A stretch of DNA of 64,000 bases. It comes from an uncultured Bacilli bacterium (GTDB lineage Bacteria; Bacillota_I; Bacilli_A; RF39; UBA660). Below, one piece after another: positions 1 to 64,000 of this stretch; the first letter of the stretch is position 1; each line of letters begins with the position of its first letter. The notes beneath the pieces were generated by a model. It searched no databases. It was not told where the DNA came from and saw only the letters and a program-made list of their open reading frames with translations. A program made the position numbers and the translations under genes. Location: contig CALVSC010000001.1 in NCBI GenBank assembly GCA_944358855.1, positions 2,385 through 66,384 of the forward strand, given 5' to 3'.

Positions 1-1480
1 TCTTGCTGAACTAGGTTATAAAGTGTCAAAAGAAGAGTTTGATAAATATATGAATATACAAAAAGAATTAGCTAAGAAAAATAGTAAGAATAAAACAAGT
101 ATGGCAAGTCAAAAGAAAGTGTTGTTGGATTTTAAAGAGAAAAGTCAATTTGTATATGGTATCTATCGTTTAAAAACAAGTGTTTTAGCTATTTTTTCTA
201 AAGATAGTATTGTTGATAAAGTTGATCATGATTGTTATATTGCGTTAAAGAGAACTTGTTGTTATGCTGAATCTGGTGGACAAGTTAGTGATACAGGTAT
301 GATTATTGGTAAGAATTTTAAAGCTCGTTTATTAGATTGTTTTAAGGCTCCTAATGGGCAACATATTCATAAAGTAAAGTTATTAGATGGTGTTATTTCT
401 TATGGTGATGAATGTGAAGTTATTCTTGATCGTGATAGACGTAAAAAAATAGAGTGTAATCATTCTAGTGTTCATATGTTACAGTATGCACTACAACAAT
501 GTGTATCATCTCAAATTAAACAAGCTGGTAGTTATGTAGATGAAAATAAATTAAGATTTGATTTTACTTATTCTGGTAAGATGAGTGATGATAAGATTAT
601 TGAAGTTGAGAACTTTGTTAATGATATGATACAAAAACATATTATTGTTTCTACAGAAATTATGCCTATTGATAAAGCTAAACAACTAGGAGCAATGGCG
701 TTATTTAATGAAAAATATGGGGATGTTGTTAGGGTTGTTAAAATTGGTAAGTCTATGGAATTATGTGGTGGAACACATGCTGCTAATACAAAAGATATAG
801 AAAAGTTTGCAATCTATAGTTATGAATCTAAAGGTAGTAATTTATTTAGAATTGAAGCAGCAACTGGTAAAAGATCAGAAGATATTTTATATGATGTTGT
901 GAAACCATATAAAGATGAGATTATTAAATTATTATTAAAAGCAAAAGAAATTATTGAAGAAGCACGTAGTCTTGGTATTAAATTAGATTTTGATGCAGAT
1001 GTTGAACAAACAAAGCCAGAGACTTTTAAAGATATTGTATTTTGTCGTAATGAATTACAATATGTACAAGGTGAAGTTAGAGATTTAGAAAAGAAGTTTA
1101 GAGACTTAAGAGAAAAACAGGTTTTATCTAACTTAGATATTTATCGTGAACATATTAAAGACTATAATGGTACTTTTGGACTTATTATGACAGTTGAGAA
1201 TAAAGATGTTAATTTACTTAAGAGTGTTTGTGATGCAATGATAGATGAAATGGGTACTGGTTTTGTATTCTTTGCTAATATTAAAGACAATGGAAGTATT
1301 AATTTTATTTCTCGTAGTAATTGTCATGCTAATAGTGGTCTTATTGTTAAAGATGCTAGTGTTTCTTCTGGAGGTAATGGTGGAGGTAGTCCTACTTTTG
1401 CTCAAGGTGGAGGTAAGACAAAAGATGCGTTACCAAAGATTTATACACATATTGAGAAAGTGTTAAGAAATGAAGAATAA
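1..1480 (+). CDS. alaS: alanine--tRNA ligase, C-terminal ~490 aa (5'-truncated by window edge)
   Basis: Editing-domain motifs HSSVHMLQYAL and CGGTHA, plus a C-Ala domain with Gly-rich SSGGNGGGSP tail. The ORF is open to the window start. Confidence 0.85.
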   Translation, partial: LAELGYKVSKEEFDKYMNIQKELAKKNSKNKTSMASQKKVLLDFKEKSQFVYGIYRLKTSVLAIFSKDSIVDKVDHDCYIALKRTCCYAESGGQVSDTGMIIGKNFKARLLDCFKAPNGQHIHKVKLLDGVISYGDECEVILDRDRRKKIECNHSSVHMLQYALQQCVSSQIKQAGSYVDENKLRFDFTYSGKMSDDKIIEVENFVNDMIQKHIIVSTEIMPIDKAKQLGAMALFNEKYGDVVRVVKIGKSMELCGGTHAANTKDIEKFAIYSYESKGSNLFRIEAATGKRSEDILYDVVKPYKDEIIKLLLKAKEIIEEARSLGIKLDFDADVEQTKPETFKDIVFCRNELQYVQGEVRDLEKKFRDLREKQVLSNLDIYREHIKDYNGTFGLIMTVENKDVNLLKSVCDAMIDEMGTGFVFFANIKDNGSINFISRSNCHANSGLIVKDASVSSGGNGGGSPTFAQGGGKTKDALPKIYTHIEKVLRNEE

Positions 1481-2408
1481 TTATTTGTTAGAAAGTGAAG
1501 ATAATTATCTGGTTGAGATGAAGATCCAAGAGATTATTAAAAATAATGATTTCTTGGGATCTCCTTATCACGTATATAATATGGATGAAGATAAACTAAG
1601 TCAGGTTTTAGAAGATTTAGATACTTATGGATTGTTTTCTTCTAAAAAAATAATAGAAGTAAATCATATAGAAAATTTAAGTAGTGATACAAGTGATAAG
1701 GATATTAAACATTTTATTCAATACTTTATGAATCCACTAGATACAAATTTAGTTTTTGTTACAGCTAATAAGTTAAATAATACTAAGAAATTAACGAAGG
1801 ATTTAAAGAAGTATTTAGAGGTAGTTAATGTCAGTTGTAATGCTTTAGATTTTGTGAAAGGGCAATTAAAAGATTATAGTTTAGAATCTGGTGTTGCTAG
1901 AAAGTTAGTGGATTTATGTTTAGAAGATATTGGTAGATTATATCAAGAATGTTGGAAGTTAAAGATGTATCGTTATGATACGAAGAAAATATCTTTGGAG
2001 GATGTTAATACTTTAGTAATACGTAAATTGGGAGATAGTAAAGATTTAACGTTTGAGTTTGTAAGAGTTTTAGCTTCTAAAGATAAAAAGGAAGCGTTAA
2101 AGAAGTATCATGAGTTACAAGAGTATTCGATTGATAGTCTTCCTTTAATAGGGTTACTTGCTAGTCAGTTTTTAATTATGTATCAAGTAAAGTTGTTAGA
2201 GAAAAAGAGTCATTCTAATAGTGATATTGCTACTATACTTGGTGAAAAGCCATATCGTATTCAAAAGACGAGAGAGTTAACGAAATATTATAGTTTAGAT
2301 GAGTTAGGTAGTATATTAAGAAGTCTTAGTGATATGGATTTAAAGATTAAGACTACGGATGTAGATGGTAGTTTTTTAATAGAGTTATTTATTTTAAAAA
2401 ATACTTAA
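1470..2408 (+). CDS. holA: DNA polymerase III delta subunit
   Basis: 312 aa with HolA-like N-terminus (GLFSSKKIIEV) and C-terminal clamp-loader delta pattern (EKPYRIQK...LKIKTTDVD...LELFIL). Overlaps the alaS stop by 11 nt. Confidence 0.65.
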   Translation: MKNNYLLESEDNYLVEMKIQEIIKNNDFLGSPYHVYNMDEDKLSQVLEDLDTYGLFSSKKIIEVNHIENLSSDTSDKDIKHFIQYFMNPLDTNLVFVTANKLNNTKKLTKDLKKYLEVVNVSCNALDFVKGQLKDYSLESGVARKLVDLCLEDIGRLYQECWKLKMYRYDTKKISLEDVNTLVIRKLGDSKDLTFEFVRVLASKDKKEALKKYHELQEYSIDSLPLIGLLASQFLIMYQVKLLEKKSHSNSDIATILGEKPYRIQKTRELTKYYSLDELGSILRSLSDMDLKIKTTDVDGSFLIELFILKNT

Positions 2409-2414
2409 AAAAGT

Positions 2415-2440
2415 CAAGAGTTATTGCTCTTGGCTTTTTA
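2415..2440. terminator. bidirectional intrinsic terminator between convergent holA and rarA
   Basis: Hairpin caagag-ttattg-ctcttg, flanked by an A-run upstream and a T-run downstream. Confidence 0.5.
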
Positions 2441-3641
2441 TTTTTTCTAATCTATCATATATTTCTTTTAAATTTTTTTCATATCCTATTTCTTTAGGGT
2501 GATAGTATTTTTTATTTTTTAGTTTATCTGGTAAGTATTGTTGAACTACATATGCTCCTTTATAGTCGTGTGGATATTTATAGTTAGTTGCGTTTGTTTT
2601 TATATGGGCTGGAATACTTCCTACATTTCCTTGTTCAATATCTTTTATGGCTTCATCTAGCGAGGTGTGGGCTGTATTACTTTTTGGTGATAGAGCCATT
2701 TCACAAACAATTTCTCCTAGAGGAATTCTTGCTTCTGGTAGTCCAACTCTTTCTGATGCGTTAATAGCAGCATCTAATCTAGGTCCTATGGCAGGGTTTG
2801 CTAGTCCTATATCTTCATAGGCTATAACGGATAATCTTCTGTAGATTGAGTCAAGGTCTTCTTCTACTAATAATCTTGCTAAGTAGTGTAGGGCAGCGTC
2901 TACATCACTTCCTCTTATTGATTTTTGTAATCCGCTTAGTACATCGTAGTGTCCTTCTCCGTTTTTATCAGAAAAGAATACGGGTTTATTATTTATCTTT
3001 TTAATCTTTTCTTCTGTTATTTTTTTATCGTCTGTAGAGTAGTAAGCAACTTCTAATAGGTTGTAAGCGTATCTTAAGTCGCTTCCAGAGAGTTTTGCAA
3101 TTAGTTCAATACTTTTGTTGTCAATTTCAATTCCTTCTAAATCGGGGTGTTTTATGGCCTTTTTAAGGCCTTCTATGATATCTTGCTCTTCTAGGTCATG
3201 TAATTCGAATATTTGACATCTACTACGTATAGCAGGGTTAATGGCATGATATGGATTAGAAGTTGTCATACCGATTAATGTTATTAATCCACTTTCTAAT
3301 TGTGGTAGTAAGATATCTTGTTTATCTTTATTTAATCGATGTATTTCATCCATAATTAAGATGATTCCGTCATACATTTTGGCTTCTTCTATTACAACAT
3401 CTAAGTCTTTTTTTGTGTTGATAGTAGCGTTTAAAAAACGATATCTTTCTCCTAAATCATTTACAATGGCGTTTGCAATAGAGGTTTTTCCTATTCCTGG
3501 TTTTCCATATAGTATCATGGAAAATAGTTTTTTATTTTTTACTAAGTTTGATAGTATTTTGCCATCTCCAACTAAGTGTTTTTGACCAATTATATCATTT
3601 AGAGTTTTAGGTGCTAATTTTAAAGCTAAAGGTTTGTTCAT
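2421..3641 (-). CDS. rarA: replication-associated recombination protein A (AAA+ ATPase RarA/MgsA)
   Basis: Walker A GKPGIGKTS, Walker B ILIMDEIHR, and a conserved MgsA C-terminal region (HYDVLSGLQKSIRGSDVDAALHYLARLL). Confidence 0.85.
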   Translation of the reverse strand: MNKPLALKLAPKTLNDIIGQKHLVGDGKILSNLVKNKKLFSMILYGKPGIGKTSIANAIVNDLGERYRFLNATINTKKDLDVVIEEAKMYDGIILIMDEIHRLNKDKQDILLPQLESGLITLIGMTTSNPYHAINPAIRSRCQIFELHDLEEQDIIEGLKKAIKHPDLEGIEIDNKSIELIAKLSGSDLRYAYNLLEVAYYSTDDKKITEEKIKKINNKPVFFSDKNGEGHYDVLSGLQKSIRGSDVDAALHYLARLLVEEDLDSIYRRLSVIAYEDIGLANPAIGPRLDAAINASERVGLPEARIPLGEIVCEMALSPKSNTAHTSLDEAIKDIEQGNVGSIPAHIKTNATNYKYPHDYKGAYVVQQYLPDKLKNKKYYHPKEIGYEKNLKEIYDRLEKIKSQEQ

Positions 3642-3662
3642 GTTATCACCATTTCTATTGTA

Positions 3663-4598
3663 TCATATCTTAGGGTTATTTCTTTTTACTTTTTGATATT
3701 GATGGTAGAAGCCTTTGGCGTCTTCTTCATCTGTTGCGATTAGTTCCACTAGTTGATCAAAGTAGTTATCTCTCGGTTGTTGATGGTAATATTCTCCTTC
3801 ATATCTTTTTTTACTTTGTTCTAGTAGTTTATTTACTTGTTGATTTAGTCTGTATCTTTGAAATGTTCCATCACTTATTGCTTGTATTAGTTTTACGGTA
3901 AAGTTAATGTTATTTTGAATGGTCTTTTCTTTTAATGTTCCGTTAGGATAACGAAATTCTATTTGACTTTCACTTGGTCTAATATGTACGGCATCTAAAT
4001 CTGTAAATATATTGGGTAGGCGTCTATGTTCTTCATCTATTATTCCTTGAAAGAATTCTCTTTCTTTTTTACCCGTTAACAATCTTGGCCTTATTAATCT
4101 TGCATAACCATCTAGTGTCTCTCTTTCTTCTCCATAATCTCCCATATAGAAAGCATATATTTCTGGTTCATAGATTGCTAGTATTTGAGCTAGTGTTTCA
4201 TAAAACTCTCTTTTATTTTTTGTGGTTGAAATATCTACCGTAACGTGATTACTACAAGTAGAGGTTATTTGAGCATGCAGTTCTCGTAACATTTTACAAA
4301 TTTTTTTTAATTCTTTCCAATCGTAGGGAACATCATGCATAATTTTACTAGATAGTTCTCCACCTACAAAACGTCTTATACCGGGTATTCCTATCTTTTC
4401 TTTCGTCACAGTTGCATCTTCGTCTAAATACCACACATCATATGGTAGTTTTTTAGCATAATGCCTATAGATATATTCAATTGGTAAATGTTCTTTTTTA
4501 CTTTCTTTTTTTATATCAGCTAATAAAACATCAGCAAATTCTATTTCTACACCAAACGTTTGGTCTTTATTAAATCCTAAATCTGTTCTATATTTCAT
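3663..4598 (-). CDS. hypothetical protein, possibly an amidoligase / glutamine-synthetase-like-fold enzyme
   Basis: N-terminal FGVEIEF motif resembles the GvEiEf start of the putative-amidoligase / carboxylate-amine ligase families. There is no other recognisable motif. From memory only. Confidence 0.3.
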   Translation of the reverse strand: MKYRTDLGFNKDQTFGVEIEFADVLLADIKKESKKEHLPIEYIYRHYAKKLPYDVWYLDEDATVTKEKIGIPGIRRFVGGELSSKIMHDVPYDWKELKKICKMLRELHAQITSTCSNHVTVDISTTKNKREFYETLAQILAIYEPEIYAFYMGDYGEERETLDGYARLIRPRLLTGKKEREFFQGIIDEEHRRLPNIFTDLDAVHIRPSESQIEFRYPNGTLKEKTIQNNINFTVKLIQAISDGTFQRYRLNQQVNKLLEQSKKRYEGEYYHQQPRDNYFDQLVELIATDEEDAKGFYHQYQKVKRNNPKI

Positions 4599-4703
4599 GT
4601 GTCCTCCTTATAGGGAACTTCATTATACTACTTTTCTTTTTTATAGGAAAGTGTAAAGTTGTATTTTTTTGATATTTATTCTATACTAACTATAGGTGAT
4701 ACT

Positions 4704-5609
4704 ATGAAAATAGAGGATGCTATCGAAGATTTTATACAATATTCTTTGTTTGAAAAAGGGTTAACTGATCAAAGTGTTAAGTCTTATCGTAATGATTTAG
4801 ATGTTTATTTAAATTTTTTAAAAAACAAGAATATTTCTGTTGTTTCTGATATTAAAAGTGATGATATAAAAGAGTTTTTAAAGATGCGAAGTAATAGTGA
4901 GACTACAGCAACGATTGCTCATAATTTAACGGTTATTAAGAATTTTCATAAGTATTTAATAAAAGAAAATATTGTAAAAGAAGATGTTTCTTTATTTATT
5001 TCACGACCTAAGTTAAAAAAGAGTATTCCTAGGGCATTAAGTGTCGATGAGGTTGATTTACTCCTTGATATTCCACTATCTACGCCATTTGACTATCGTA
5101 ATAAAGCTATGTTAGAATTAATGTATGGAGCAGGACTTAGAGTGAGTGAATTAGTAAGTCTTAATCTAAATCAAATTGATTTAGAAAATGGAATGATACG
5201 TATTCTTGGAAAAGGAAGAAAAGAAAGAGATATTCCTATAGGAGAATATGGTATTTATTATTTAAAACTTTATTTAGAACATCGTAGTGCTTTAGTTAAA
5301 AATACTTTAGTAGATTCGTTGTTTTTAAATAATCATGGGAAACAGATTACAAGACAAGGATTTTTTAAGATTTTAAAACAATTACTTATCGATAAAGGGT
5401 TAAATCCTGATGTTTCTCCTCACACTTTGCGTCATAGTTTTGCTACTCATTTGCTTAGTAGAGGTGCAGATCTTAGAAGTATTCAAGAGATGTTAGGGCA
5501 TTCTGATATTTCGACTACTAAGATTTATACGCAAGTAAGTTTAGAAAAAGTGGAGGAAGATTATAAGAAATATCACCCTAGGGAGCATAAAGGAGATTGG
5601 AAAGAATGA
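4704..5609 (+). CDS. xerD: tyrosine recombinase XerD (chromosome dimer resolution)
   Basis: HTLRHSFATHLL...GHSDISTTKIYTQV catalytic R-H-R-Y region and ELMYGAGLRVSELVSL box I. The start was moved to the ATG at 4704, which follows an RBS. The gene lies 2.7 kb from the dif site. Confidence 0.8.
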   Translation: MKIEDAIEDFIQYSLFEKGLTDQSVKSYRNDLDVYLNFLKNKNISVVSDIKSDDIKEFLKMRSNSETTATIAHNLTVIKNFHKYLIKENIVKEDVSLFISRPKLKKSIPRALSVDEVDLLLDIPLSTPFDYRNKAMLELMYGAGLRVSELVSLNLNQIDLENGMIRILGKGRKERDIPIGEYGIYYLKLYLEHRSALVKNTLVDSLFLNNHGKQITRQGFFKILKQLLIDKGLNPDVSPHTLRHSFATHLLSRGADLRSIQEMLGHSDISTTKIYTQVSLEKVEEDYKKYHPREHKGDWKE

Positions 5610-6772
5610 GATTTAAACGTATATTTTTAATGGTTTTAGATTCCGTTGGAGTAGGGGAAGCGAGTGATGCACTAAATTATGGTGATGGTGGTGCTAATAC
5701 ATTAGGGCATGTTCGAGATCATTATGATTTGTTTATTCCTAATTTAAAGAAAATTGGGTTTTTAGATACGATTAATATGAATGATAATCCAGATGTTGAA
5801 GCTTATTATACAATAGCTAAGCCAAATAACGCTGGTAAAGACAGTTTAAATGGTCATTATGAGATGATGGGTATTGAAAATGATATTCCGTTTAAGACGT
5901 TTAACCAGGGCTTTACGTTTGATATTTTAAATGGTATTGAACAAGTTACTGGTCGTAGAGTTATAGGTAATAAGTGTTGTCATGATGATTCTATTATACA
6001 AGAACTTGGTGAAAGGCAACAGAATTATGGAGCGTTAATTATTTATACTTCTGCTGATTCTGATTTACAAGTTGCTGCACATGAAGATTGTATTCCGGTT
6101 GCTACATTATATGAGTATTGTGAAAGAATTAGAGCACTTACTTTACGGGATGAGTGGAGAGTTGGTCGAGTAATTGCTAGACCATTTACTGGTACTCCAG
6201 GACATTATAAGTTTATTCATAGTGGTAGAAGAGATTATTCTGTTAAACCTCCGAGAAAGTCTGTTTTGGATAGTTTAGTTGAAAATAAATATAATGTTAT
6301 TGGTATTGGCAAGATTAATGATATTTTTGATGGACAAGGTATTAATAAACAGATGAAGGCTAATAATAATAGTGAAGCTATTAATAAATTTACTGATATT
6401 ATAGATAAAAACTTTACTGGACTATGTATGGTTAATTTATCTGACTTTGATAGTTTATATGGCCATACAAGAGATGTTGAGGGTTATGGTAAAGCCCTTG
6501 AGGAATTAGATGTAGAAATCCCGATTATTTTAAATAAATTAGATACAGGAGATTTGCTTATTATTACAGCAGATCATGGTAATGATCCTACTTTTGCAGG
6601 TAGTGATCATACTAGAGAAAATGTACCAGTTATATTGTATAGTCGTGATTTTTTAGAGCCAAAGCGGTTGGATGCTTTTGATACATTTGCAAATATTGGC
6701 GCAACAATTGCTGATAATTTTGATGTAGAAATGCCACCGATTGGTAAAAGTATATTAGATAGTTTGGAGTAG
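5606..6772 (+). CDS. deoB: phosphopentomutase
   Basis: N-terminal FLMVLDSVGVGE and C-terminal ITADHGNDPT metal-binding motifs typical of DeoB. The ATG overlaps the xerD stop (ATGA). Confidence 0.85.
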   Translation: MRFKRIFLMVLDSVGVGEASDALNYGDGGANTLGHVRDHYDLFIPNLKKIGFLDTINMNDNPDVEAYYTIAKPNNAGKDSLNGHYEMMGIENDIPFKTFNQGFTFDILNGIEQVTGRRVIGNKCCHDDSIIQELGERQQNYGALIIYTSADSDLQVAAHEDCIPVATLYEYCERIRALTLRDEWRVGRVIARPFTGTPGHYKFIHSGRRDYSVKPPRKSVLDSLVENKYNVIGIGKINDIFDGQGINKQMKANNNSEAINKFTDIIDKNFTGLCMVNLSDFDSLYGHTRDVEGYGKALEELDVEIPIILNKLDTGDLLIITADHGNDPTFAGSDHTRENVPVILYSRDFLEPKRLDAFDTFANIGATIADNFDVEMPPIGKSILDSLE

Positions 6773-6776
6773 TTTT

Positions 6777-7751
6777 ATGAATGTCGATAAGCCTATTATT
6801 TCAGTTATTTCTGACCAATACTCAGAAGATGATTACAGTGTGTTAGTAGAAGATGCAATGAAGCAATTAGATCAAGATAAGTCACATCTACCGTTTGTGC
6901 ATCATATTTATGTTCCTTTTTTTGAACAGGGAATTCCTGTTGTTCATATGAGACCTAAAAGGTTTTCAGATGGAACATTATCTTATGTTTTAACAACTTT
7001 TATGCCTAAGAATATTGGATTTCAAAATATGATTGATTTAAAGCATAAAATTAAGGAGTTTGAAGCAGGTTGTGATATTTCTAGAGAAGAAGTAGTGTAT
7101 GTGAAAGATAAGAATTCTTTTGGGGGTTATGATTATGAGTTTTATCCTCCTGTTATTGAAGAGAAAACAACACCTTTAACAGATATATGTGATATGTTTT
7201 ATAGAGATGCAAATGGAATGTCTTCTGATGAAGAAAAAAAGATGTTTTCAAAATTTAGAGAATTTGATTTAAATAGTATGTTTTTTGATGAAAGCTATTT
7301 ATCTTATCCTATTAATCATAATGGTTGTGGCGTTATTTTAATTAATCAAGAGGGTAGAGTAAGGCCTTCTCCTGTTACTAAAAATGTGCATATTGAAACG
7401 TTATCTTATTTACTATCTGAAGAAATAGGAGAGGATGTTACTGGAAAATATACTTTCCCTGAAGTTGTTTCCGATTATAAAATGGGTGTTGTTTTAATAA
7501 GAGATGGTCAAACACAAATGTTTATTCCTTCTCAAATTACAGATGAACAAAAAAAGGGACTTATCGAAGTTTATGAAGATTTGTATGATTCTTCTTGTGG
7601 TGGGGACTTTGGAAACTCTATTACTTGCGCTACATTAGGTGATGATAATCATGTAATAGATGCTGGTTCTAGAAGAGATGATATCTTAGAGATATTTAAT
7701 CGTTTTTCTTCTCATGAGGTAGAAGAGGGGAGCAATAGAAAAAGAGTCTAG
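6777..7751 (+). CDS. hypothetical protein
   Basis: 324-aa ORF with a GGAG RBS and no recognised motif. Confidence 0.5.
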   Translation: MNVDKPIISVISDQYSEDDYSVLVEDAMKQLDQDKSHLPFVHHIYVPFFEQGIPVVHMRPKRFSDGTLSYVLTTFMPKNIGFQNMIDLKHKIKEFEAGCDISREEVVYVKDKNSFGGYDYEFYPPVIEEKTTPLTDICDMFYRDANGMSSDEEKKMFSKFREFDLNSMFFDESYLSYPINHNGCGVILINQEGRVRPSPVTKNVHIETLSYLLSEEIGEDVTGKYTFPEVVSDYKMGVVLIRDGQTQMFIPSQITDEQKKGLIEVYEDLYDSSCGGDFGNSITCATLGDDNHVIDAGSRRDDILEIFNRFSSHEVEEGSNRKRV

Positions 7752-7768
7752 GTTAGGCTCTTTTTTTT
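7741..7768 (+). terminator. intrinsic terminator
   Basis: aaagag-tctaggttagg-ctcttt hairpin followed by T8. It overlaps the stop codon of the preceding gene. Confidence 0.4.
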
Positions 7769-7780
7769 GTTATACTCCCC

Positions 7781-7939
7781 CTACTTTTTTTCTTTAAAAT
7801 TTTCGCAGACAGTCTCTTCTACTTTTTTACAAGAATCGTTATTACAAGTACATCCTACTTTTATTTCTTTTAATTTACAACAATTTGTTTTACAATCATT
7901 ATGCTTACATGTTTCTACATCACACTTAATATTATTCAT
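7781..7939 (-). CDS. small Cys-rich protein, DUF1540-like (52 aa; absent from the ORF track)
   Basis: Hand translation gives MNNIKCDVETCKHNDCKTNCCKLKEIKVGCTCNNDSCKKVEETVCENFKEKK, matching the VKCDV.NC.....C.A..I.V....C....C.TF pattern of DUF1540. A GGAGG RBS sits 8 nt upstream. Confidence 0.6.
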   Translation of the reverse strand: MNNIKCDVETCKHNDCKTNCCKLKEIKVGCTCNNDSCKKVEETVCENFKEKK

Positions 7940-8327
7940 ATAATCCCTCCTTAATCTTAGTATGCGTTTATTTTCTTTTTTTATTCTTTCCTAATTTAAA
8001 TCGAGATGGGTAATTGTTCATCTTTTATTATTTCGATTCATTTTAGAGCATTCTAATATTGGAGTAGTTGTAGTGTAGGCGTTTGTTTCTTATTATATAT
8101 AATATATAATGTAATATAATAAGGTTATCTATAATATAGAAATAAAAAGATATATAATTAATTTATATATCAGTAAAAAAAATAATTTTAAATTGTTGTT
8201 AATTATATAATTTATTATTTAATAAATAATCTATATTAAATATAGTATAATGTAGTAGATATATAAGTTATTAGATAAAAATATATTATTTTTTATTATT
8301 TTTCTTTAATTTTTTATTTTATATCTA

Positions 8328-8355
8328 ACTTCCTATAATTGATATTATGTTAACT
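8328..8355. other. dif site (XerC/XerD chromosome dimer resolution site)
   Basis: ACTTCCTATAATTGATATTATGTTAACT matches 24/28 positions of B. subtilis dif ACTTCCTAGAATATATATTATGTAAACT. It lies in an AT-rich gap where predominant gene orientation converges. Confidence 0.75.
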
Positions 8356-8368
8356 TCTTATAGGAGTA

Positions 8369-8863
8369 CTATTTCGATGGTGGTAAGATAATAGTGTTTT
8401 TCTTTATTTCTTCTTTTATTCTTTTTAATACGTATTGTTGTTCATTAGGATAATTAGTATGAAATGTTAATATAGGAATACTTGCTTTTTTACATATTTC
8501 TTGAACTTTTATGTCACATTGTTTTCTTTTGGGTTGATTATGAGTGTTGTCATTTAATTCTATTAATAATAATAGTTTTTTATAATCTTTGGTAAATATC
8601 GCATAATCAATATTTCTATATAGTTCATTTTGATATTTTATATTACTTTCTTTTTCTATTATAGTTGCGAGATTTATTTGTGGTATTATTTTATATTCTT
8701 CTTCTAGTGGTTTTAGTTTTTGATAAAATTTGTTTTCTTTTTCTGTTAAAAATTCTTTTCTTTTATAATTAACATTAGTGTTTCTTTTTAATTTATTTTC
8801 TGTATAATGACCAATAAATCCTATTATTAAAAAAATAATTAACCACATTAACATGTTGTCCAT
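8369..8863 (-). CDS. membrane-anchored DUF2726-like (restriction-endonuclease-fold) protein
   Basis: N-terminal TM helix followed by a YAIFTKDYKKLLLLIELNDNTHNQPKRKQCDIKVQEICKKASIPILTF core that resembles DUF2726 / NERD-type PD-(D/E)xK modules. Confidence 0.45.
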   Translation of the reverse strand: MDNMLMWLIIFLIIGFIGHYTENKLKRNTNVNYKRKEFLTEKENKFYQKLKPLEEEYKIIPQINLATIIEKESNIKYQNELYRNIDYAIFTKDYKKLLLLIELNDNTHNQPKRKQCDIKVQEICKKASIPILTFHTNYPNEQQYVLKRIKEEIKKNTIILPPSK

Positions 8864-8909
8864 TGTTATCCCCTACTCTTTCTATAGTAAAAAAGATTCC
8901 TTTTGGAAT

Positions 8910-9677
8910 CTATACTTTTCTTGATTGAATTTCTGCGATTTTTTCAAATACTTCTTTGGCATTATCTTCATTGATTTCTGTATATCCTAGTTCTGATAAT
9001 GCTTGTACTTTAGCAGAGTTTAATTCTTGTGTTCTTGATAATTTTTCTTCTTTTTTATGTTCAATATCTTGAACGAAACGTTTATGGGTTTCACTTATTT
9101 TATTTTTAGAAGCTCCACCATTATTATATAATGTCATGGCACTAAACATAATACTTTCAAAGATAAATTGTTTATCATTATTAAAAACAAATTCCATTGG
9201 ATCAGTAAATCCTAGAGCTTTAGACATATAAGCTAATATGTATTTTAATTCTTCTGTTGTTTCCATTGATTGTAAGAAATGATGTAGGTATATATATGTG
9301 TTATATGTTTCTTTTGTTTTATCTGTTGCTAGTTTTTCTTTTAATAAATTAATAATATCTGATAATAGTTCTTGTTCTTTTTTATTAAAACCTTTTAAAT
9401 CAGCAATTACTTCTTTATTAGAAGAATCTTTTACGCCTTCTTTTAATCTATTTTCTACTTCTATAATATATTCACCATTAATTTTTATATCTTTTAATTC
9501 ATCAATACTTTCTATATTTAATAAACTTAGTAATTTGGCTGCTTTTTCTTTTGGCCAGTCATTTAAATTTTCTATAGCTAAATAGTTGTATAACATTTGT
9601 CTAGAAACTCCTAAGTATTTTGCAAGTCTTACTTTACTGATTCCTAGTTCTGTTAGTACTACGTTTAATTCTTTCAT
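8910..9677 (-). CDS. HTH (XRE-like) DNA-binding protein with ~190-aa C-terminal domain of unknown function
   Basis: N-terminal LTELGISKVRLAKYLGVSRQMLYNYL helix-turn-helix. Confidence 0.55.
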   Translation of the reverse strand: MKELNVVLTELGISKVRLAKYLGVSRQMLYNYLAIENLNDWPKEKAAKLLSLLNIESIDELKDIKINGEYIIEVENRLKEGVKDSSNKEVIADLKGFNKKEQELLSDIINLLKEKLATDKTKETYNTYIYLHHFLQSMETTEELKYILAYMSKALGFTDPMEFVFNNDKQFIFESIMFSAMTLYNNGGASKNKISETHKRFVQDIEHKKEEKLSRTQELNSAKVQALSELGYTEINEDNAKEVFEKIAEIQSRKV

Positions 9678-9758
9678 GTTTATTTACCCTCCTAATATAA
9701 TTATAGACATAATAGTGTTAATAATCAAGTGTAAATTGACACATATTTTTTGTTTTGT

Positions 9759-10787
9759 TTACTTTTCAATGATTGCGCCACCTAAACAGATTTTATCTTT
9801 ATTATAAAATACAATATATTGTCCAGGTGTTATGGCTCTAATATTATTTTTAAAAATTACTTCTATTTTATTATCTTTTTCTATTATTTCTTCTACTTCT
9901 TCTAAGGCACCACGTGATCTTATTTTTGCAAATATTGGTTTTGTTATTTCTTCTTTTTCTACTAGATAATTCATGTTGTTTGCTATTAATTTGTGGTGAT
10001 ATAAAGAATTGTTAGGACCTACAATTAAATTGTTTTCTTTTGTGTCTATATCGATTACATAAAGAGGTTCTTTATATGAGATATTTAGGCCTTTTCTTTG
10101 ACCTATTGTATACTGGTATAAGCCGTTGTGTTTACCTAATATAGTGTTGTCTTCTAATATGATATTACCAGGTGTTCTTTTTATTTTATCTTCTAAAAAG
10201 GCTTTATAATTATCGTTTGGTATAAAACAGATTTCTTGACTATCTTTCTTTTTACTTATAGGTAGATGATTTTGTTCTGCAATTTTACGTATTTCGTCTT
10301 TTGATTGATATTTATTTAATGGAAATAATATATGAGGTATTATCTCTTTATTTATTTGACATAAGAAATAAGTTTGATCTTTTTCTAATACATCACTCAT
10401 GATTAAGTGATTGTCTTTTATTTTAGCATAATGACCAGTTGCGATATAGTTTGCGTTTAATTCTTTGGCTTTGTCATAAAATAATTTAAATTTAAAGTTT
10501 TTATTACATAGTACACAAGGGTTTGGTGTTTTTCCTTCTTGATATGATTTTATAAAATTATCGATAACTTCTTTTTTAAATTCTTTTCTTAAGTCCCAGG
10601 TGTAGTGTTTAATATTTAGTATTTTGGCTATGTTTTTGGCATCGTTTATGGCTTTTTTAGTTTCTTCATTATCTAATAGTTGCATAGTAGCTCCTATTAC
10701 ATCGTATCCTGCTTCTTTTAATAATAATGCAGCAACTGATGAGTCTACTCCTCCACTCATGCCAATAATTACTTTTTTTTCTTCCAT
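9759..10787 (-). CDS. mnmA: tRNA-specific 2-thiouridylase
   Basis: PP-loop SGGVDSS, a CxxC pair, and overall MnmA architecture. The start was moved to the ATG (MEEKKV) that follows a GGTGA RBS. Confidence 0.85.
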   Translation of the reverse strand: MEEKKVIIGMSGGVDSSVAALLLKEAGYDVIGATMQLLDNEETKKAINDAKNIAKILNIKHYTWDLRKEFKKEVIDNFIKSYQEGKTPNPCVLCNKNFKFKLFYDKAKELNANYIATGHYAKIKDNHLIMSDVLEKDQTYFLCQINKEIIPHILFPLNKYQSKDEIRKIAEQNHLPISKKKDSQEICFIPNDNYKAFLEDKIKRTPGNIILEDNTILGKHNGLYQYTIGQRKGLNISYKEPLYVIDIDTKENNLIVGPNNSLYHHKLIANNMNYLVEKEEITKPIFAKIRSRGALEEVEEIIEKDNKIEVIFKNNIRAITPGQYIVFYNKDKICLGGAIIEK

Positions 10788-10826
10788 AGTTATCACCAAG
10801 GATATTATATCTTAAAATGGTGTTGT

Positions 10827-11399
10827 TTAAAAGAGTAAAGTAGGTATTAAATATGTTTCTATTATAATAATTATTATTTGGTATATTATGATAAATAGTA
10901 ATAGTTTTAGGTATTCTTTTATATAATTATGCATTATGACATTTTTCTTTTTTATTATTGTTTTATATATAATATTTGATAGTTTTATTGCATAGTAACT
11001 TAGTATTATGGTTCCTAGTATATTTAATAGGTTTGGTAAGCTATATATTAGGCTTATTATCACTCCTTTTATTCCTTTTGTTATCATTATACTTGTTATT
11101 GTAAAACCCGCTATATAGGCCTTTAAAATAAGTATTATGATAATGATTGGTATTCCTATTAGTGATAGTCCTAATAACCATATCGTTATAGCAAGTGGAA
11201 TGTTGTTTAAGGTTGATTGTATTAGTGTTTTCGTGTAATTAATATTTTTTATATTATTTAAATTATCTGTTATTGTCGTTTTAATTAATTCTTTATCTTG
11301 TTCATTTAAAATTGCTGGATATAATAGACCAATTATGATACTTATTATTGTTATGATAGATAGTATAAATAGTAATTTATTCTCTTTTATTTTTTTCAT
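10827..11399 (-). CDS. SpoIIM-like (DUF95) integral membrane protein
   Basis: 190 aa, several TM helices, N-terminal pattern resembling stage II sporulation protein M. Confidence 0.4.
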   Translation of the reverse strand: MKKIKENKLLFILSIITIISIIIGLLYPAILNEQDKELIKTTITDNLNNIKNINYTKTLIQSTLNNIPLAITIWLLGLSLIGIPIIIIILILKAYIAGFTITSIMITKGIKGVIISLIYSLPNLLNILGTIILSYYAIKLSNIIYKTIIKKKNVIMHNYIKEYLKLLLFIIIYQIIIIIIETYLIPTLLF

Positions 11400-11503
11400 A
11401 GGCTCTCCTTTTTATCATTATATTTTCTTTCTTATTTCCTATGAAAAAAACTGTTTTACTTTTTTAGACATTTATTTTATAATTAATAATGAGGTGTTTA
11501 TTA

Positions 11504-11590
11504 ATGAATGAGAAAGTTGTTAAAATCGTAGCCATTGTTTTAGTTGTTGTAATGGTTGTCAGTGTTTTAAGTGTTTTATTATATTTATAA
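11504..11590 (+). CDS. 28-aa hydrophobic single-TM peptide (absent from the ORF track)
   Basis: MNEKVVKIVAIVLVVVMVVSVLSVLLYL. A GAGGTG RBS lies 7 nt upstream and an intrinsic terminator follows immediately. Confidence 0.4.
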   Translation: MNEKVVKIVAIVLVVVMVVSVLSVLLYL

Positions 11591-11620
11591 AAAAACTTCC
11601 GTTTCGGAAGTCTTTTTTTA
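11589..11620. terminator. bidirectional intrinsic terminator
   Basis: A6-cttccg-tttc-cggaag-T7. Confidence 0.6.
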
Positions 11621-11920
11621 TCTATCAATATATCCTTCTAGTTCTGGCATTATGTCTTGAACAATGCCATCTTTTATATAGTATTTATTTACGATATCAT
11701 TTATTCTTTTGGTATCTTTTGCTAGATATAACATCAATATTCCAGCAATTCTATTTGCAGTATATTGATCTAGTAATTTTCTATCTTCTGGTTTTATATG
11801 GTATTTTCTGGTGATATCTACTATAGGACCGTATCCATAATAATAGTTTGTCAATGCTTTCGCAATGGCTTCTACATCTTTATTTTTATCTGTTAGTTTT
11901 ACTTTTGTCCATATTTTCAT
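11618..11920 (-). CDS. hypothetical 100-aa protein
   Basis: Clean ORF immediately downstream of spoIVB, with no recognised motif. Confidence 0.45.
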   Translation of the reverse strand: MKIWTKVKLTDKNKDVEAIAKALTNYYYGYGPIVDITRKYHIKPEDRKLLDQYTANRIAGILMLYLAKDTKRINDIVNKYYIKDGIVQDIMPELEGYIDR

Positions 11921-11980
11921 ATCCTCATCCCCTATCGGTTATATATTTTAACATATTTTTTTATATAAATAAAGGAGAAA

Positions 11981-12973
11981 TTAACTTTCTCCTTGTTCTA
12001 ACATAGTAGTTATAAAGATTCCATATCCTTTTTTTGTATCATTTAATATTACATAGTTAACGGCTCCTATTAATTTATTATTCTGGATAATAGGAGAGCC
12101 ACTCATTCCTTGTATTACTCCTCCTGATGCTTCTAGTAATGTTTTATCTGTTATTTCAAATAAGATGTTTTTACTTTTACTATCATAATCTATATTTAGA
12201 ATATTTATTTCATAGTCTTTTACCACATCTTTTTCGATGTTTGTTCTAATATAGGCTCTTCCCTTTTTTATTTCCTCTTCTTTTCCTACTTCTATTTCTT
12301 CCATGTTGTTTGTTTCTTCTTTATAATCACCAAATATTCCAGCTATTTCGTTTGTATCAATTTCTCCTTCAACTGTTTCTTTATTATAGGTTGCATTTTT
12401 TTCTCCAGCGGTACCATCTCTACTCTTTTCTATTTTTGAAACGTTTGCATTAAATATTTTACCATCTTTTATTTCAAATTTTTTAGCTGTTGTTGTTTCG
12501 ATGATTTCGTGTCCTAGTGCTCCAAATCTTTTGGTGTTAGGATCAATATAGGTTAATGTTCCAATACCATTTATTTGGTCTTTTACATAAAGTCCAGTTT
12601 TAACAACACCTTCATCGTTGGGGACTAAGTTGGTTGTTATTTCTAGTTCTTTATTTTCTCTTTCAACTTTAAATTTAATAGGATTATTTTTATTTTTTAA
12701 AGCGTTTACCATTTCTTCTATTGTATTTATTTTGGTATCATTAATATTTGTTATGACGTCTCCTATTTCAAATCCTGCTTCTTGTCCTATGTTTTTACCA
12801 CCAACTTCGTAAAAGCCAACAATTAAAACACCATTACTGTTTACTTCTATTCCAATTGTTTTACCAGATGCGATTAAATAATCAGAATAAGCAAGTGTGG
12901 GAATGGGAATGATAGTAACAAGTAGAATTAGTAGTAGTATTAGTCTTTTTTTAAATTTTTTCAAATTTATCAC
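11981..12973 (-). CDS. spoIVB: stage IV sporulation protein B, S55 signal peptidase
   Basis: N-terminal TM helix, PDZ region, GTLTY...GALGH and C-terminal QGMSGSPI serine-protease motifs. Confidence 0.8.
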   Translation of the reverse strand: MINLKKFKKRLILLLILLVTIIPIPTLAYSDYLIASGKTIGIEVNSNGVLIVGFYEVGGKNIGQEAGFEIGDVITNINDTKINTIEEMVNALKNKNNPIKFKVERENKELEITTNLVPNDEGVVKTGLYVKDQINGIGTLTYIDPNTKRFGALGHEIIETTTAKKFEIKDGKIFNANVSKIEKSRDGTAGEKNATYNKETVEGEIDTNEIAGIFGDYKEETNNMEEIEVGKEEEIKKGRAYIRTNIEKDVVKDYEINILNIDYDSKSKNILFEITDKTLLEASGGVIQGMSGSPIIQNNKLIGAVNYVILNDTKKGYGIFITTMLEQGES

Positions 12974-13114
12974 CTCTTTTCTTCTACTACATTTATAGTT
13001 TTTGTTATTGATAATTTTTTATGTTAAATAGTTTTTACCATTTACACTAAATATTTACATTTTTTTTGATTTTTTTAAGGTGTTTTGTTATAGTTATACT
13101 AGAGGTGATAATAG

Positions 13115-43645: not shown

Positions 43646-44728
43646 TTATTGAATGTTTTTTAAAAATTTGTTTATACTATGATACCATTTAAACATACCT
43701 AATTTTCTTTCTGCATATTTTTGAAATTCTGCTTCGCTATAATTTTTATTAATACTTTTCCATCTTTTTAAAACTCTTTTATAACAAGTTTCTATACTTG
43801 TTCTCATTACTATGATTTGTCCTTTTAATATAGAATAATCCTTTATATTTCTATATTGTGCGGAATCAATAATTATGATTTTATTACTATTTTTAAAATA
43901 TTCTAAAACTTTTAGATAGAATTCATCAAAATTAGTAAACAAATAATCCTTTGGTGTATCTTTAAATATTTCTCGTAATTGAACACACTCTTTATTATTG
44001 GATGGTTTATTACTAAAAACAATATCCGTATCTATTACAATATAATTATCATCATTTATATACTTTTTACTATAATATGATTTTCCACTACCAGATTCAC
44101 CTGTAATATTTATAATTTTGTCTTTAGTTATAGACTTTATATATGGTTTTTTATCTATAAATCTGCTTATCAATAAATCAGACTTTATTTCATATAAATA
44201 GGTTTCAATTTCTTCTACTAGATTATTTTCTTCTTTTTTATTGCTTTTGTTTCCATGCAATATAAAATCATTCCATTCTTCTAATGCTGTATCAATATTT
44301 TCTTTTTTTATTTTATCTTTTAGTATTTGATATGCTGTTTTTTGATAGTTCATAATACTTACTACAGCTAATGTTTTATAATATGATTTTTCTGGTATTT
44401 TCGAAATTTTGTAATAATGAAGAGCTGATTCGTCATTTACTTTTTTGGGATTACTTATCATTATTTTATTTGTTCTATATATTGTTGTGGCACCCTCTAA
44501 TTTAATATTTTCAGCATCTTCAGGTATTGTAACATCATAAATTGTATCTCCTCGATGTAACCATCTTACTATGCAGTCCTCACTACAATAATTAAAACCT
44601 CCGAAGTCTTTAGCTGTTGTAGCGTTGGGCTTCCAATTGGTTGCGATATTTACTTCATTAATTTTATATTGATAATTTGCTTTGGCTCCTGAAGTAGTGC
44701 CATACAAAACTTTTACATATTTTTTCAT
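43646..44728 (-). CDS. paralogous fusion: degenerate Arr-like ART-fold domain (His lost) + P-loop kinase-like domain
   Basis: N-terminus VLYGTTSGAKAN...TIYDVTIPEDAEN parallels Arr FYHGTKANL...YIYIVEPTGPFEDD but lacks the His. C-terminus has Walker A ITGESGSGKS and IIIDSAQ. Confidence 0.4.
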   Translation of the reverse strand: MKKYVKVLYGTTSGAKANYQYKINEVNIATNWKPNATTAKDFGGFNYCSEDCIVRWLHRGDTIYDVTIPEDAENIKLEGATTIYRTNKIMISNPKKVNDESALHYYKISKIPEKSYYKTLAVVSIMNYQKTAYQILKDKIKKENIDTALEEWNDFILHGNKSNKKEENNLVEEIETYLYEIKSDLLISRFIDKKPYIKSITKDKIINITGESGSGKSYYSKKYINDDNYIVIDTDIVFSNKPSNNKECVQLREIFKDTPKDYLFTNFDEFYLKVLEYFKNSNKIIIIDSAQYRNIKDYSILKGQIIVMRTSIETCYKRVLKRWKSINKNYSEAEFQKYAERKLGMFKWYHSINKFLKNIQ

Positions 44729-62443: not shown

Positions 62444-63400
62444 TTAGTTCCTCTTTAGAGTTAATACCATTCTTTTTGCTTCAGCAATGTCTCCTCTTGA
62501 AATTCCGGGGTTTAATTTTAAAGGTATTCTTGGCTCTTTTGGCTTTGATATGGTTTGCGAAAGATGTTTTAATTGTTCAAGAGTATATTTATTAATAGGA
62601 AGGTCAATAATATCTACTCTATAATTATCTGGGCTTATAAAATTAACTCCATGATATTGTAGTGTCATGTCATCTCCCTTGGATTTTAATATTATTGCTT
62701 TGCCACCTTTTACTGGATAATTAAATTTCATACCCTCTAATCTTGGAATGCTTTGTTCTACAAAATCTAAAAATAGTGGAGGCTCTGATAAGTTCCAACC
62801 AATTGCTGATGAAACGTTTTCATCTATGCAAGATCTTAATTCACCCATGTTTTTGGCAAGTTGGGAAGAAATAGAAGCACAAATTCTCTCCTCACTTGGT
62901 AGAGGACGTTTTATTCCAACATCGATAGAATCATCATCTAAATATACAATATATTTTTTCTCCTCACCATTTGACTGGGAATTAAACATCTCCTCTACTT
63001 CTTCTCTATTAGCATAAACTTTTCTTAAATTACCTCTTAAGATTGTATTAATAATTAAAGCATCATTATTATCTTTAATCGCAAAGCTTTCAAAAATTCT
63101 ATTATCACCAATTCCAATATATGGTTCTTCAAAATTTAATAATTGGTTTGTATGATTGATTCTACCTGAGAATCCATCTCTAGAATAATGTGTTGGAATA
63201 TTTGAGTATGGAAATTGTTTTCTTCTTTCATCAGACATATATTGATTAGTGGAAATGTGGGATCCATCTCTATGTGAATAAACGATACCATCTGAATTTA
63301 TAATAGCAAGAGATGTTCTATAAGGAACCATTATTTGAACGCAATCCTCTCCAACATAATGACTTGCTATTCTTTGGACCACTTCTTCTGTATTTTTCAC
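62444..63400 (-). CDS. hypothetical protein
   Basis: 318-aa ORF with no recognised motif. Confidence 0.45.
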   Translation of the reverse strand: MKNTEEVVQRIASHYVGEDCVQIMVPYRTSLAIINSDGIVYSHRDGSHISTNQYMSDERRKQFPYSNIPTHYSRDGFSGRINHTNQLLNFEEPYIGIGDNRIFESFAIKDNNDALIINTILRGNLRKVYANREEVEEMFNSQSNGEEKKYIVYLDDDSIDVGIKRPLPSEERICASISSQLAKNMGELRSCIDENVSSAIGWNLSEPPLFLDFVEQSIPRLEGMKFNYPVKGGKAIILKSKGDDMTLQYHGVNFISPDNYRVDIIDLPINKYTLEQLKHLSQTISKPKEPRIPLKLNPGISRGDIAEAKRMVLTLKRN

Positions 63401-63900: not shown

Positions 63901-64000
63901 AATTTAATACCTTCCTTACTCTTTGAATCGAATTTACTTACTACATCAGGTATGTATGTATCTACAAAACTGTGAAATGAATCAAGCGTATTATAATAGC

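Follow-up and report, generated by a model that had tools for sequence, protein, structure and literature searches.

A predicted chromosomal dif site with a 31-nucleotide core in an uncultured gut Bacilli lineage, placed at a gene-orientation switch and apparently apart from the meeting point of the replication forks

An experimentally defined site of this kind is dif of Bacillus subtilis, a 28-bp sequence laid out as two 11-nt arms around a 6-nt centre, of which the left half-site is bound by CodV and the right one by RipX (PMC5357621). The sequences of B. subtilis dif (ACTTCCTAGAATATATATTATGTAAACT) and Escherichia coli dif (GGTGCGCATAATGTATATTATGTTAAAT) used below are those given in PMC3025954. 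According to published remarks, no form of dif is conserved more widely than the Firmicutes type. Xer sites also serve as entry points for integrase-less mobile elements (IMEX), whose classes have been reviewed (PMC5357621). The IMEX of Vibrio cholerae (CTXphi, VGJphi and TLCphi) and the GGI of Neisseria sit at dif and are flanked by one functional dif and one hybrid site, and in TLCphi and the GGI the XerC arm is kept while the XerD arm has diverged (PMC5357621). A further group consists of single-recombinase systems, namely XerS/difSL of streptococci, XerH/difH and XerL of Legionella, in which the recombinase gene is linked to its site throughout a clade; in Legionella a mobile element was used to authenticate the dif site (PMC9765430). 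Replication generally terminates near dif and not at it, with offsets of 0-1.39% of genome length (1 sigma) and outliers below 3% (PMC3025954).

In the window, by which we mean the whole stretch of 64,000 nucleotides analysed, positions 8328-8355 of the + strand read ACTTCCTATAATTGATATTATGTTAACT. This 28-mer is identical at 24 of 28 positions to the experimentally defined B. subtilis dif, with one mismatch in each 11-nt arm and two in the 6-nt centre. A sequence-only reading of the window had proposed a 24/28 dif match with both arms present, and the comparison with B. subtilis agrees with it, giving 10/11 for each arm. The 11 + 6 + 11 layout is shared as well; the centre is TATATA in B. subtilis, whereas here it is TTGATA and an extra, invariant TCT follows the right arm. 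A search of the window with B. subtilis dif at three mismatches or fewer returned no match, because the site has four, and the second-best site found by a custom scan of the window has seven. Only one copy of the 28-mer is present in the window, and likewise in an 82-kb composite of conspecific contigs. The parts of the site are as follows, the arms being assigned by analogy with B. subtilis:

8328..8338, + strand: dif left arm ACTTCCTATAA, CodV/XerC-type half-site by analogy, 10/11 to the B. subtilis left half-site
8339..8344, + strand: dif central region TTGATA, putative strand-exchange region, where insert homology starts or stops in two other contigs (L002 and L124)
8345..8355, + strand: dif right arm TTATGTTAACT, RipX/XerD-type half-site by analogy, 10/11 to the B. 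subtilis right arm
8356..8358, + strand: TCT on the 3' side of the XerD arm, invariant in 35 of 35 species among the matches listed

The right arm also agrees with the E. coli XerD arm (TTATGTTAAAT) at 10 of 11 positions.

The site lies in an AT-rich spacer between genes, and a tyrosine recombinase gene is found close by:

4659..5609, + strand: xerD/ripX-type tyrosine recombinase gene (NCBIfam PRK00283, 326.8 bits, cut-off 279)
7781-7939, - strand: DUF1540 gene, 52 aa, left border of the spacer
7940..8368, no strand: AT-rich spacer holding dif, 429 bp, devoid of credible ORFs and of Rfam matches
8369..8863, - strand: DUF2726 gene adjoining the XerD arm (Pfam PF10881, 7e-16)
8910..9677, - strand: gene for a 255-aa conserved protein (p255), with no family assignment beyond a weak N-terminal HTH match

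The measured 429 bp (7940-8368) bear out the gene-free gap of about 400 bp proposed from the sequence, and the distance from xerD to dif, which had been put at 2.7 kb, is 2.72 kb, with dif downstream of the gene. An Rfam search of the window returned only two tRNAs, neither of them at the spacer, and a search for repeats around the site gave nothing beyond AT-rich noise. The recombinase scored 325 bits with the XerD equivalog model (cut-off 329.6), 292.6 with XerC and 111 with XerS, and its best solved structure was E. coli XerD (1a0p, 1.4e-65). Neither a second tyrosine recombinase (the XerC/CodV partner) nor a translocase was seen in the 64-kb window. Linkage of xerD to dif is kept in relatives (mapped loci, among the matches listed), which recalls the single-recombinase systems; unlike them, this locus has a classical asymmetric 28-mer and a protein of XerD type (325 versus 111 bits for XerS). 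As in B. subtilis, a RipX/XerD-type gene is present and the site lies where gene orientations converge. The present locus differs from B. subtilis in that the recombinase gene is tightly linked (2.7 kb) throughout the clade. The adjacency of xerD and deoB appears to resemble the ripX-drm neighbourhood of B. subtilis (deoB = drm).

To the left of the spacer stand the C-terminal part of alaS (cut by the start of the window), holA, rarA (-), an amidoligase-like gene (-), the XerD-type recombinase gene, deoB and a gene of 324 aa; alaS, holA, xerD and deoB are all on the + strand. To the right, p255, mnmA, spoIIM, spoIVB, xseAB, nusB and mutS are nearly all on the - strand. The p255 protein is 52-96% identical across about 40 species among the matches listed and is encoded by the closest conserved gene on that side, an occasional DUF2726 gene aside; its adjacency to dif may reflect nothing more than synteny with mnmA, or else the gene may be functionally tied to the site. 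The DUF2726 gene, in a region with a GC fraction of 0.22, was present in seven mapped loci of related species (among the matches listed) and is possibly accessory. No second dif or half-site remnant, such as an old IMEX would leave, was found around it in the window.

To see how the site is kept in other genomes, we searched a single genome of each species for the pair of arms, whatever the centre between them, which gave at least 119 loci. Since loci were fetched by the arm pattern, independent evidence comes from the centre, the TCT and synteny only. The matched taxa comprised Bacillus and its relatives, metagenome-assembled genomes labelled uncultured Bacilli, Tenericutes, Erysipelotrichaceae and Izemoplasmatales, as well as Omnitrophota and Planctomycetales, a spread that agrees with the wide conservation of the Firmicutes-type site. 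Each of these loci, at least 119, has a single copy, with the lone exception of contig L085, whose two copies are separated by a run of N and were set aside as a scaffolding artefact. The centre TTGATA was shared by 39 site copies in low-GC Bacilli-type contigs among the matches listed, four of them from the window's own species. Among the matches listed, the 28-mer together with the TCT was identical in 35 species whose GC content ranged from 23 to 34%, and in the same 35 species the 40 nt on each side were unconserved. The TCT lay outside the search pattern, yet it was constant, which on comparative grounds lengthens the conserved core to 31 nt. In about 50 loci among the matches listed, the site stands between xerD-deoB(-DUF1540) and (DUF2726-)p255-mnmA, with flanking proteins 40-96% identical to those of the window. 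A 31-nt island conserved without a change in a drifting AT-rich spacer, held at one syntenic position, is strong comparative evidence of function.

A chance resemblance with no function has in its favour that the DNA is very AT-rich and that TATA-like words are common in it. Against this, only 1.2e-4 sites with four mismatches or fewer are expected in 64 kb on both strands at the window's composition, and perfect conservation across species between unconserved flanks would be left unaccounted for. We regard a chance match as so improbable as to be negligible.

The closest relatives among the matches listed were contigs L017 (508 kb), L119 (Candidatus Faecimonas gallistercoris, Bacilli incertae sedis), L095, L049 and L100. 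The host lineage is an uncultured group of low-GC gut Bacilli, kin to Candidatus Faecimonas and Clostridium sp. CAG:417, and exact-protein look-ups showed that the window's species has been assembled repeatedly from gut-type metagenomes of animals and humans (ONAT22, BRZ and Logan runs). Two side observations came out of the same scan. The 28-mer has the same orientation relative to its flanking genes as in the window in about 16 loci and is inverted in about 30 (among the matches listed); the site has been flipped repeatedly with its flanks undisturbed, and with no obvious link to the skew classes described below. Five contigs from genomes labelled uncultured Muribaculaceae (L012, L013, L016, L085 and L099) show the Bacilli-type xerD-deoB-dif-p255 synteny at a GC content of 23-30% and are probably mis-binned or mislabelled.

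Insertions at the site were found in two contigs, the first of them from the window's own species and the second from a relative. Contig BRZ_KM NODE_1151 (recorded as L002, L129 and L143) matches the window at 99.9% identity on its flanks and carries 4,640 bp of additional DNA inserted precisely at the site. The window aligns with it over positions 1-8361 and again over 8339-13111, which gives the following features:

L002 11552-11579: full dif, from the scan for the site
L002 11580-16191: inserted element, whose insertion point corresponds to window 8339-8358
L002 16192-16219: hybrid site AGATTCTTTTT-TTGATA-TTATGTTAACT, followed by the window's right flank
window 8339..8358, + strand: 20-nt repeat TTGATATTATGTTAACTTCT flanking the L002 element, crossover interval from the alignment

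The site is empty in eight other conspecific contigs that cross it. A misassembly at dif was considered and rejected, as the same junction is present in independent assemblies (L001, L128, L142, L146 and L147).

Among the predicted products of the element are a rolling-circle Rep (Rep_OBD, 4.5e-39; RepB_C) and an Arc-like repressor. It also codes for a protein of 224 aa whose Zot-like and P-loop matches are weak (phrog_197, 3e-6), a secreted, membrane-anchored protein of 436 aa and several hydrophobic proteins of 40-114 aa, one of which, of 66 aa, is laid out like a major coat protein. No recombinase match was obtained for the element (nine ORFs compared with PHROGs and four with Pfam; the rest are shorter than 115 aa). 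Judged by its gene plan, it appears to be, or to derive from, a small inovirus (filamentous phage), and it is a putative IMEX relying on the host's Xer recombinases. It resembles the V. cholerae IMEX and the Neisseria GGI in being integrase-less, in its place at dif and in its flanking dif and hybrid sites, and in a filamentous-phage-like gene content with a rolling-circle Rep, a Zot-like ATPase and small coat-like proteins. Unlike these, its host belongs to a Gram-positive-type Bacilli lineage. Arm conservation is also opposite to that of TLCphi and the GGI: in the attP as reconstructed, centre and XerD arm are preserved, whereas the XerC arm is poor (5/11). The attP side has the TCT too, and the degenerate XerC arm lies inside a perfect 28-nt terminator-like palindrome at the end of the repressor gene. 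The circular attP junction AGATTCTTTTT-TTGATA-TTATGTTAACT-TCTGATTTTCG was not found in viral contigs or metagenome contigs. Relatives of the Rep were found in three IMG/VR contigs of 4-7.6 kb (L137-L139; 37-40% identity), which carry no copy of the window's dif. One of them (L138, 4.6 kb, Rep 39% identity) has at 4484-4511 a different dif-like near-palindrome, ACTTCGCATAA-TGTATG-TTATGCGATTT, which may be an attP aimed at the dif of another host.

The second insertion, of 1.8 kb, lies next to dif in contig L124 (1805-3640) and encodes an HTH/DnaD-like protein of 145 aa and a protein of 164 aa. One border is a full dif; at the other, 85 nt of the left flank recur together with XerC arm and centre, and the similarity breaks off directly after TTGATAT. 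The insert has the look of another type of Xer-site element, in which the opposite arm is preserved. In the first case, an insertion polymorphism between conspecific contigs, the 20-nt repeat starts at the central hexamer. In both contigs the break lies at the central region, where exchange of strands by Xer recombinases would put it, and this is indirect evidence that site-specific recombination takes place there. As in Legionella, a mobile element thus reveals the site.

That mobile elements occupy the site, that a possibly accessory DUF2726 gene adjoins it and that the neutral-site skew switches elsewhere (see below) could also be read to mean that the 28-mer is itself a relic or attachment site of a mobile element and that the real dif lies elsewhere. 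Such a relic would have to be identical in the 35 species listed and keep one syntenic position with or without elements, as a single copy per genome locus. It would also have to differ only slightly from the dif proven by experiment in B. subtilis and have genes converging on it in at least 119 loci of several phyla; moreover, IMEX by definition target a real dif. We consider the relic reading very unlikely. Conservation and IMEX insertion together back the identification of the site as a genuine, classical XerCD (CodV/RipX) dif, as judged from sequence comparison.

By homology with known systems, the XerD/RipX-type recombinase encoded 2.7 kb away would bind the right arm, TTATGTTAACT, and a partner recombinase encoded outside the window would bind the left arm, ACTTCCTATAA. 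Strand exchange across the TTGATA centre would then resolve chromosome dimers at division. The comparison of contigs shows in addition that integrase-less mobile elements (IMEX) use this site for attachment.

The sequence-only reading had gone further and placed the replication terminus itself at the site. We examined this in a composite of conspecific contigs reaching from -8.5 to +74 kb relative to dif. The convergence of gene orientations is found at

7751..7781, no strand: gene-orientation convergence, where the last + gene ends (7751) and the first - gene begins (7781)

so that the switch is about 550 bp from dif. Among ORFs of at least 100 aa, 10 are on the + strand and 3 on the - strand to the left of dif, versus 9 and 59 to its right; the proposed pattern of mostly + genes on the left and mostly - genes on the right is therefore present. 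At nearly all of the loci, at least 119 in several phyla, the genes on the two sides point toward the site. The raw GC skew, 0.28 to the left of dif, is about 0 to its right, with a sharp break in slope. A maximum of the cumulative GC skew had been expected at dif; over the 82 kb examined, the raw cumulative G-C peaks instead at 43,670 (43.7 kb).

On the leading strand, G exceeds C and T exceeds A at neutral sites. We therefore measured skew at fourfold-degenerate sites, always on the + strand and separately for each side of dif and each gene orientation:

left of dif, + genes: fourfold-site GC skew 0.54 [0.44, 0.65]
left of dif, - genes: fourfold-site GC skew 0.40
right of dif, + genes: fourfold-site GC skew 0.42 [0.19, 0.53]
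right of dif, - genes (59 genes, 5,180 sites): fourfold-site GC skew 0.46 [0.39, 0.53]

Fourfold-site AT skew was -0.31 to -0.47 throughout, the + strand being T-rich on both sides, and third-position skew, per gene and in 10-kb bins, was positive from -8.5 to +74 kb. No switch in fourfold-site skew was found over this range. In this the site differs from B. subtilis dif. Because both gene orientations show the same + strand bias, the skew is an effect of the strand and not of coding or transcription. Codon usage and transcription were rejected as its cause on this ground and because the signs of orthologues differ by species. To the right, the raw skew is flat, since the coding strand is rich in purines and the strand effect offsets this. 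Between genes, the skew to the right of dif is slightly below zero (-0.14), for which ribosome-binding sites on the - strand may be responsible. With the + strand leading on both sides, the rightward fork would pass dif and continue for at least 65 kb. Of the proposal that the terminus is at the site, the gene-orientation switch and the break in raw skew stand, but the neutral-site skew does not reverse there. Taken broadly, the window does belong to the terminus region.

The two lines of evidence can be brought together in one reading, which we think likely: the 28-mer is the chromosomal dif and the architectural terminus, and the forks meet at least 65 kb to its right. As judged from the skew, the rightward fork would habitually run through dif before it encounters the other fork, at a distance of at least 65 kb. 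A fork passing dif in this way would make about 60 mostly low-expression genes be transcribed head-on to replication. The genes right of dif are low-expression housekeeping, sporulation, germination and transporter genes and many hypothetical ones, among them mutS, dinB, a Mur ligase gene, ABC transporters, an amylase gene, GerA and two tRNAs; ribosomal-protein and rRNA operons are absent from this stretch. A block of at least 65 kb in which 87% of genes are head-on is unusual for Bacillota, and fork direction deduced from skew could be missing something. On a whole-genome plot, the break in raw skew would roughly resemble a terminus at dif.

Under the canonical alternative, the forks do meet at dif and the unreversed neutral skew is left over, for example from a recent shift in origin or replichore balance. 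It fits the orientation switch within 550 bp of dif, the break in raw slope at the same place and published surveys, in which dif and the skew shift lie no more than about 1.4% of genome length apart, with outliers below 3% (PMC3025954); the modest rightward fall in GC3 amplitude on the + strand, from about 0.55 to about 0.2-0.3, would fit it too. A leftover skew is at odds with the fourfold-site values, as strong on the right arm as on the left (0.46 versus 0.54). The closest relatives, at about 80% nucleotide identity (L017, L095 and L119, among the matches listed), moreover show the same skew class as the window, so the state is old and no recent perturbation. We hold the canonical alternative to be improbable.

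The skew classes come from a comparison of the coding-strand third-position skew of flanking-gene orthologues, given as xerD side/p255 side. Among the matches listed, eight loci were +/- (including the window, L017, L095 and L119), four were -/+ and three were +/+, the canonical state. Since skew signs of orthologues are opposite between species, gene-specific codon usage is excluded as their source. In an 8-kb analysis, most loci of Bacillus and related genera, and the low-GC Bacilli contigs L047, L057, L069 and L086, flip sign at dif. In the clade comparison, the skew switch usually lies outside the 8-kb frame, on either side of dif. A switch away from the site accords with the published finding that forks terminate close to dif without coinciding with it. 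A circular relative has a genome of 1.52 Mb. If the genome of the window's species is about 1.5-2 Mb, an offset of at least 65 kb amounts to at least 3-4%, which is at or beyond the published range, fourfold sites being measured here and raw skew in the survey (PMC3025954).

A stable uncoupling of dif and the orientation switch from the fork meeting in this reduced-genome gut Bacilli clade is a tentative idea that we think doubtful; strongly unequal replichores or near-unidirectional replication could be its cause. Oligomers with strand polarity were looked at in the same stretch, since motifs that guide a translocase (KOPS/SRS) would point to dif from both arms. GAAGAAG points toward the site 57 times and away from it 5 times on the right arm, and 7 and 6 times on the left arm, counts that are confounded with the coding strand. 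AGAACAA, which overlaps GAACAAG and ACAAGAA, was seen 74 times on the - strand versus 2 on the + strand (8356-64000 and a 10-kb extension); this polarity is far above that of gene orientation and may reflect protein motifs in paralogous hypothetical genes at 56-64 kb.

The region around the site had also been described as one that accumulates accessory DNA. This holds loosely, for one DUF2726 gene and one strain-specific phage-like insert. Farther to the right, from 56000 to the end of the window at 64000 and through the extension to 74 kb, stand co-oriented genes of 117-685 aa with no Pfam match, one of which (62444-63400) differs in length by strain (318, 295 or 181 aa; L131-L134). This block is variable and possibly accessory.

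For a large lineage of uncultured gut Bacilli that has no experimental genetics, the analysis provides a firm dif with a 31-nt core, a landmark for orienting and closing the genomes of this lineage. It also brings to light an apparent filamentous-phage-like IMEX in a Gram-positive-type host, with an arm conservation in attP opposite to that of TLCphi and the GGI. For genome scans there is a caution, in that the orientation switch and the raw skew break indicate dif, while the neutral skew says that forks pass. If the offset holds, about 60 genes are head-on in a Bacillota chromosome, which would bear on the strength of selection for co-orientation in weakly expressed genes. Were the uncoupling true, tens to hundreds of kilobases would be transcribed head-on over evolutionary time, and the architecture around dif would be kept by segregation and translocase polarity and not by the avoidance of conflicts between replication and transcription.
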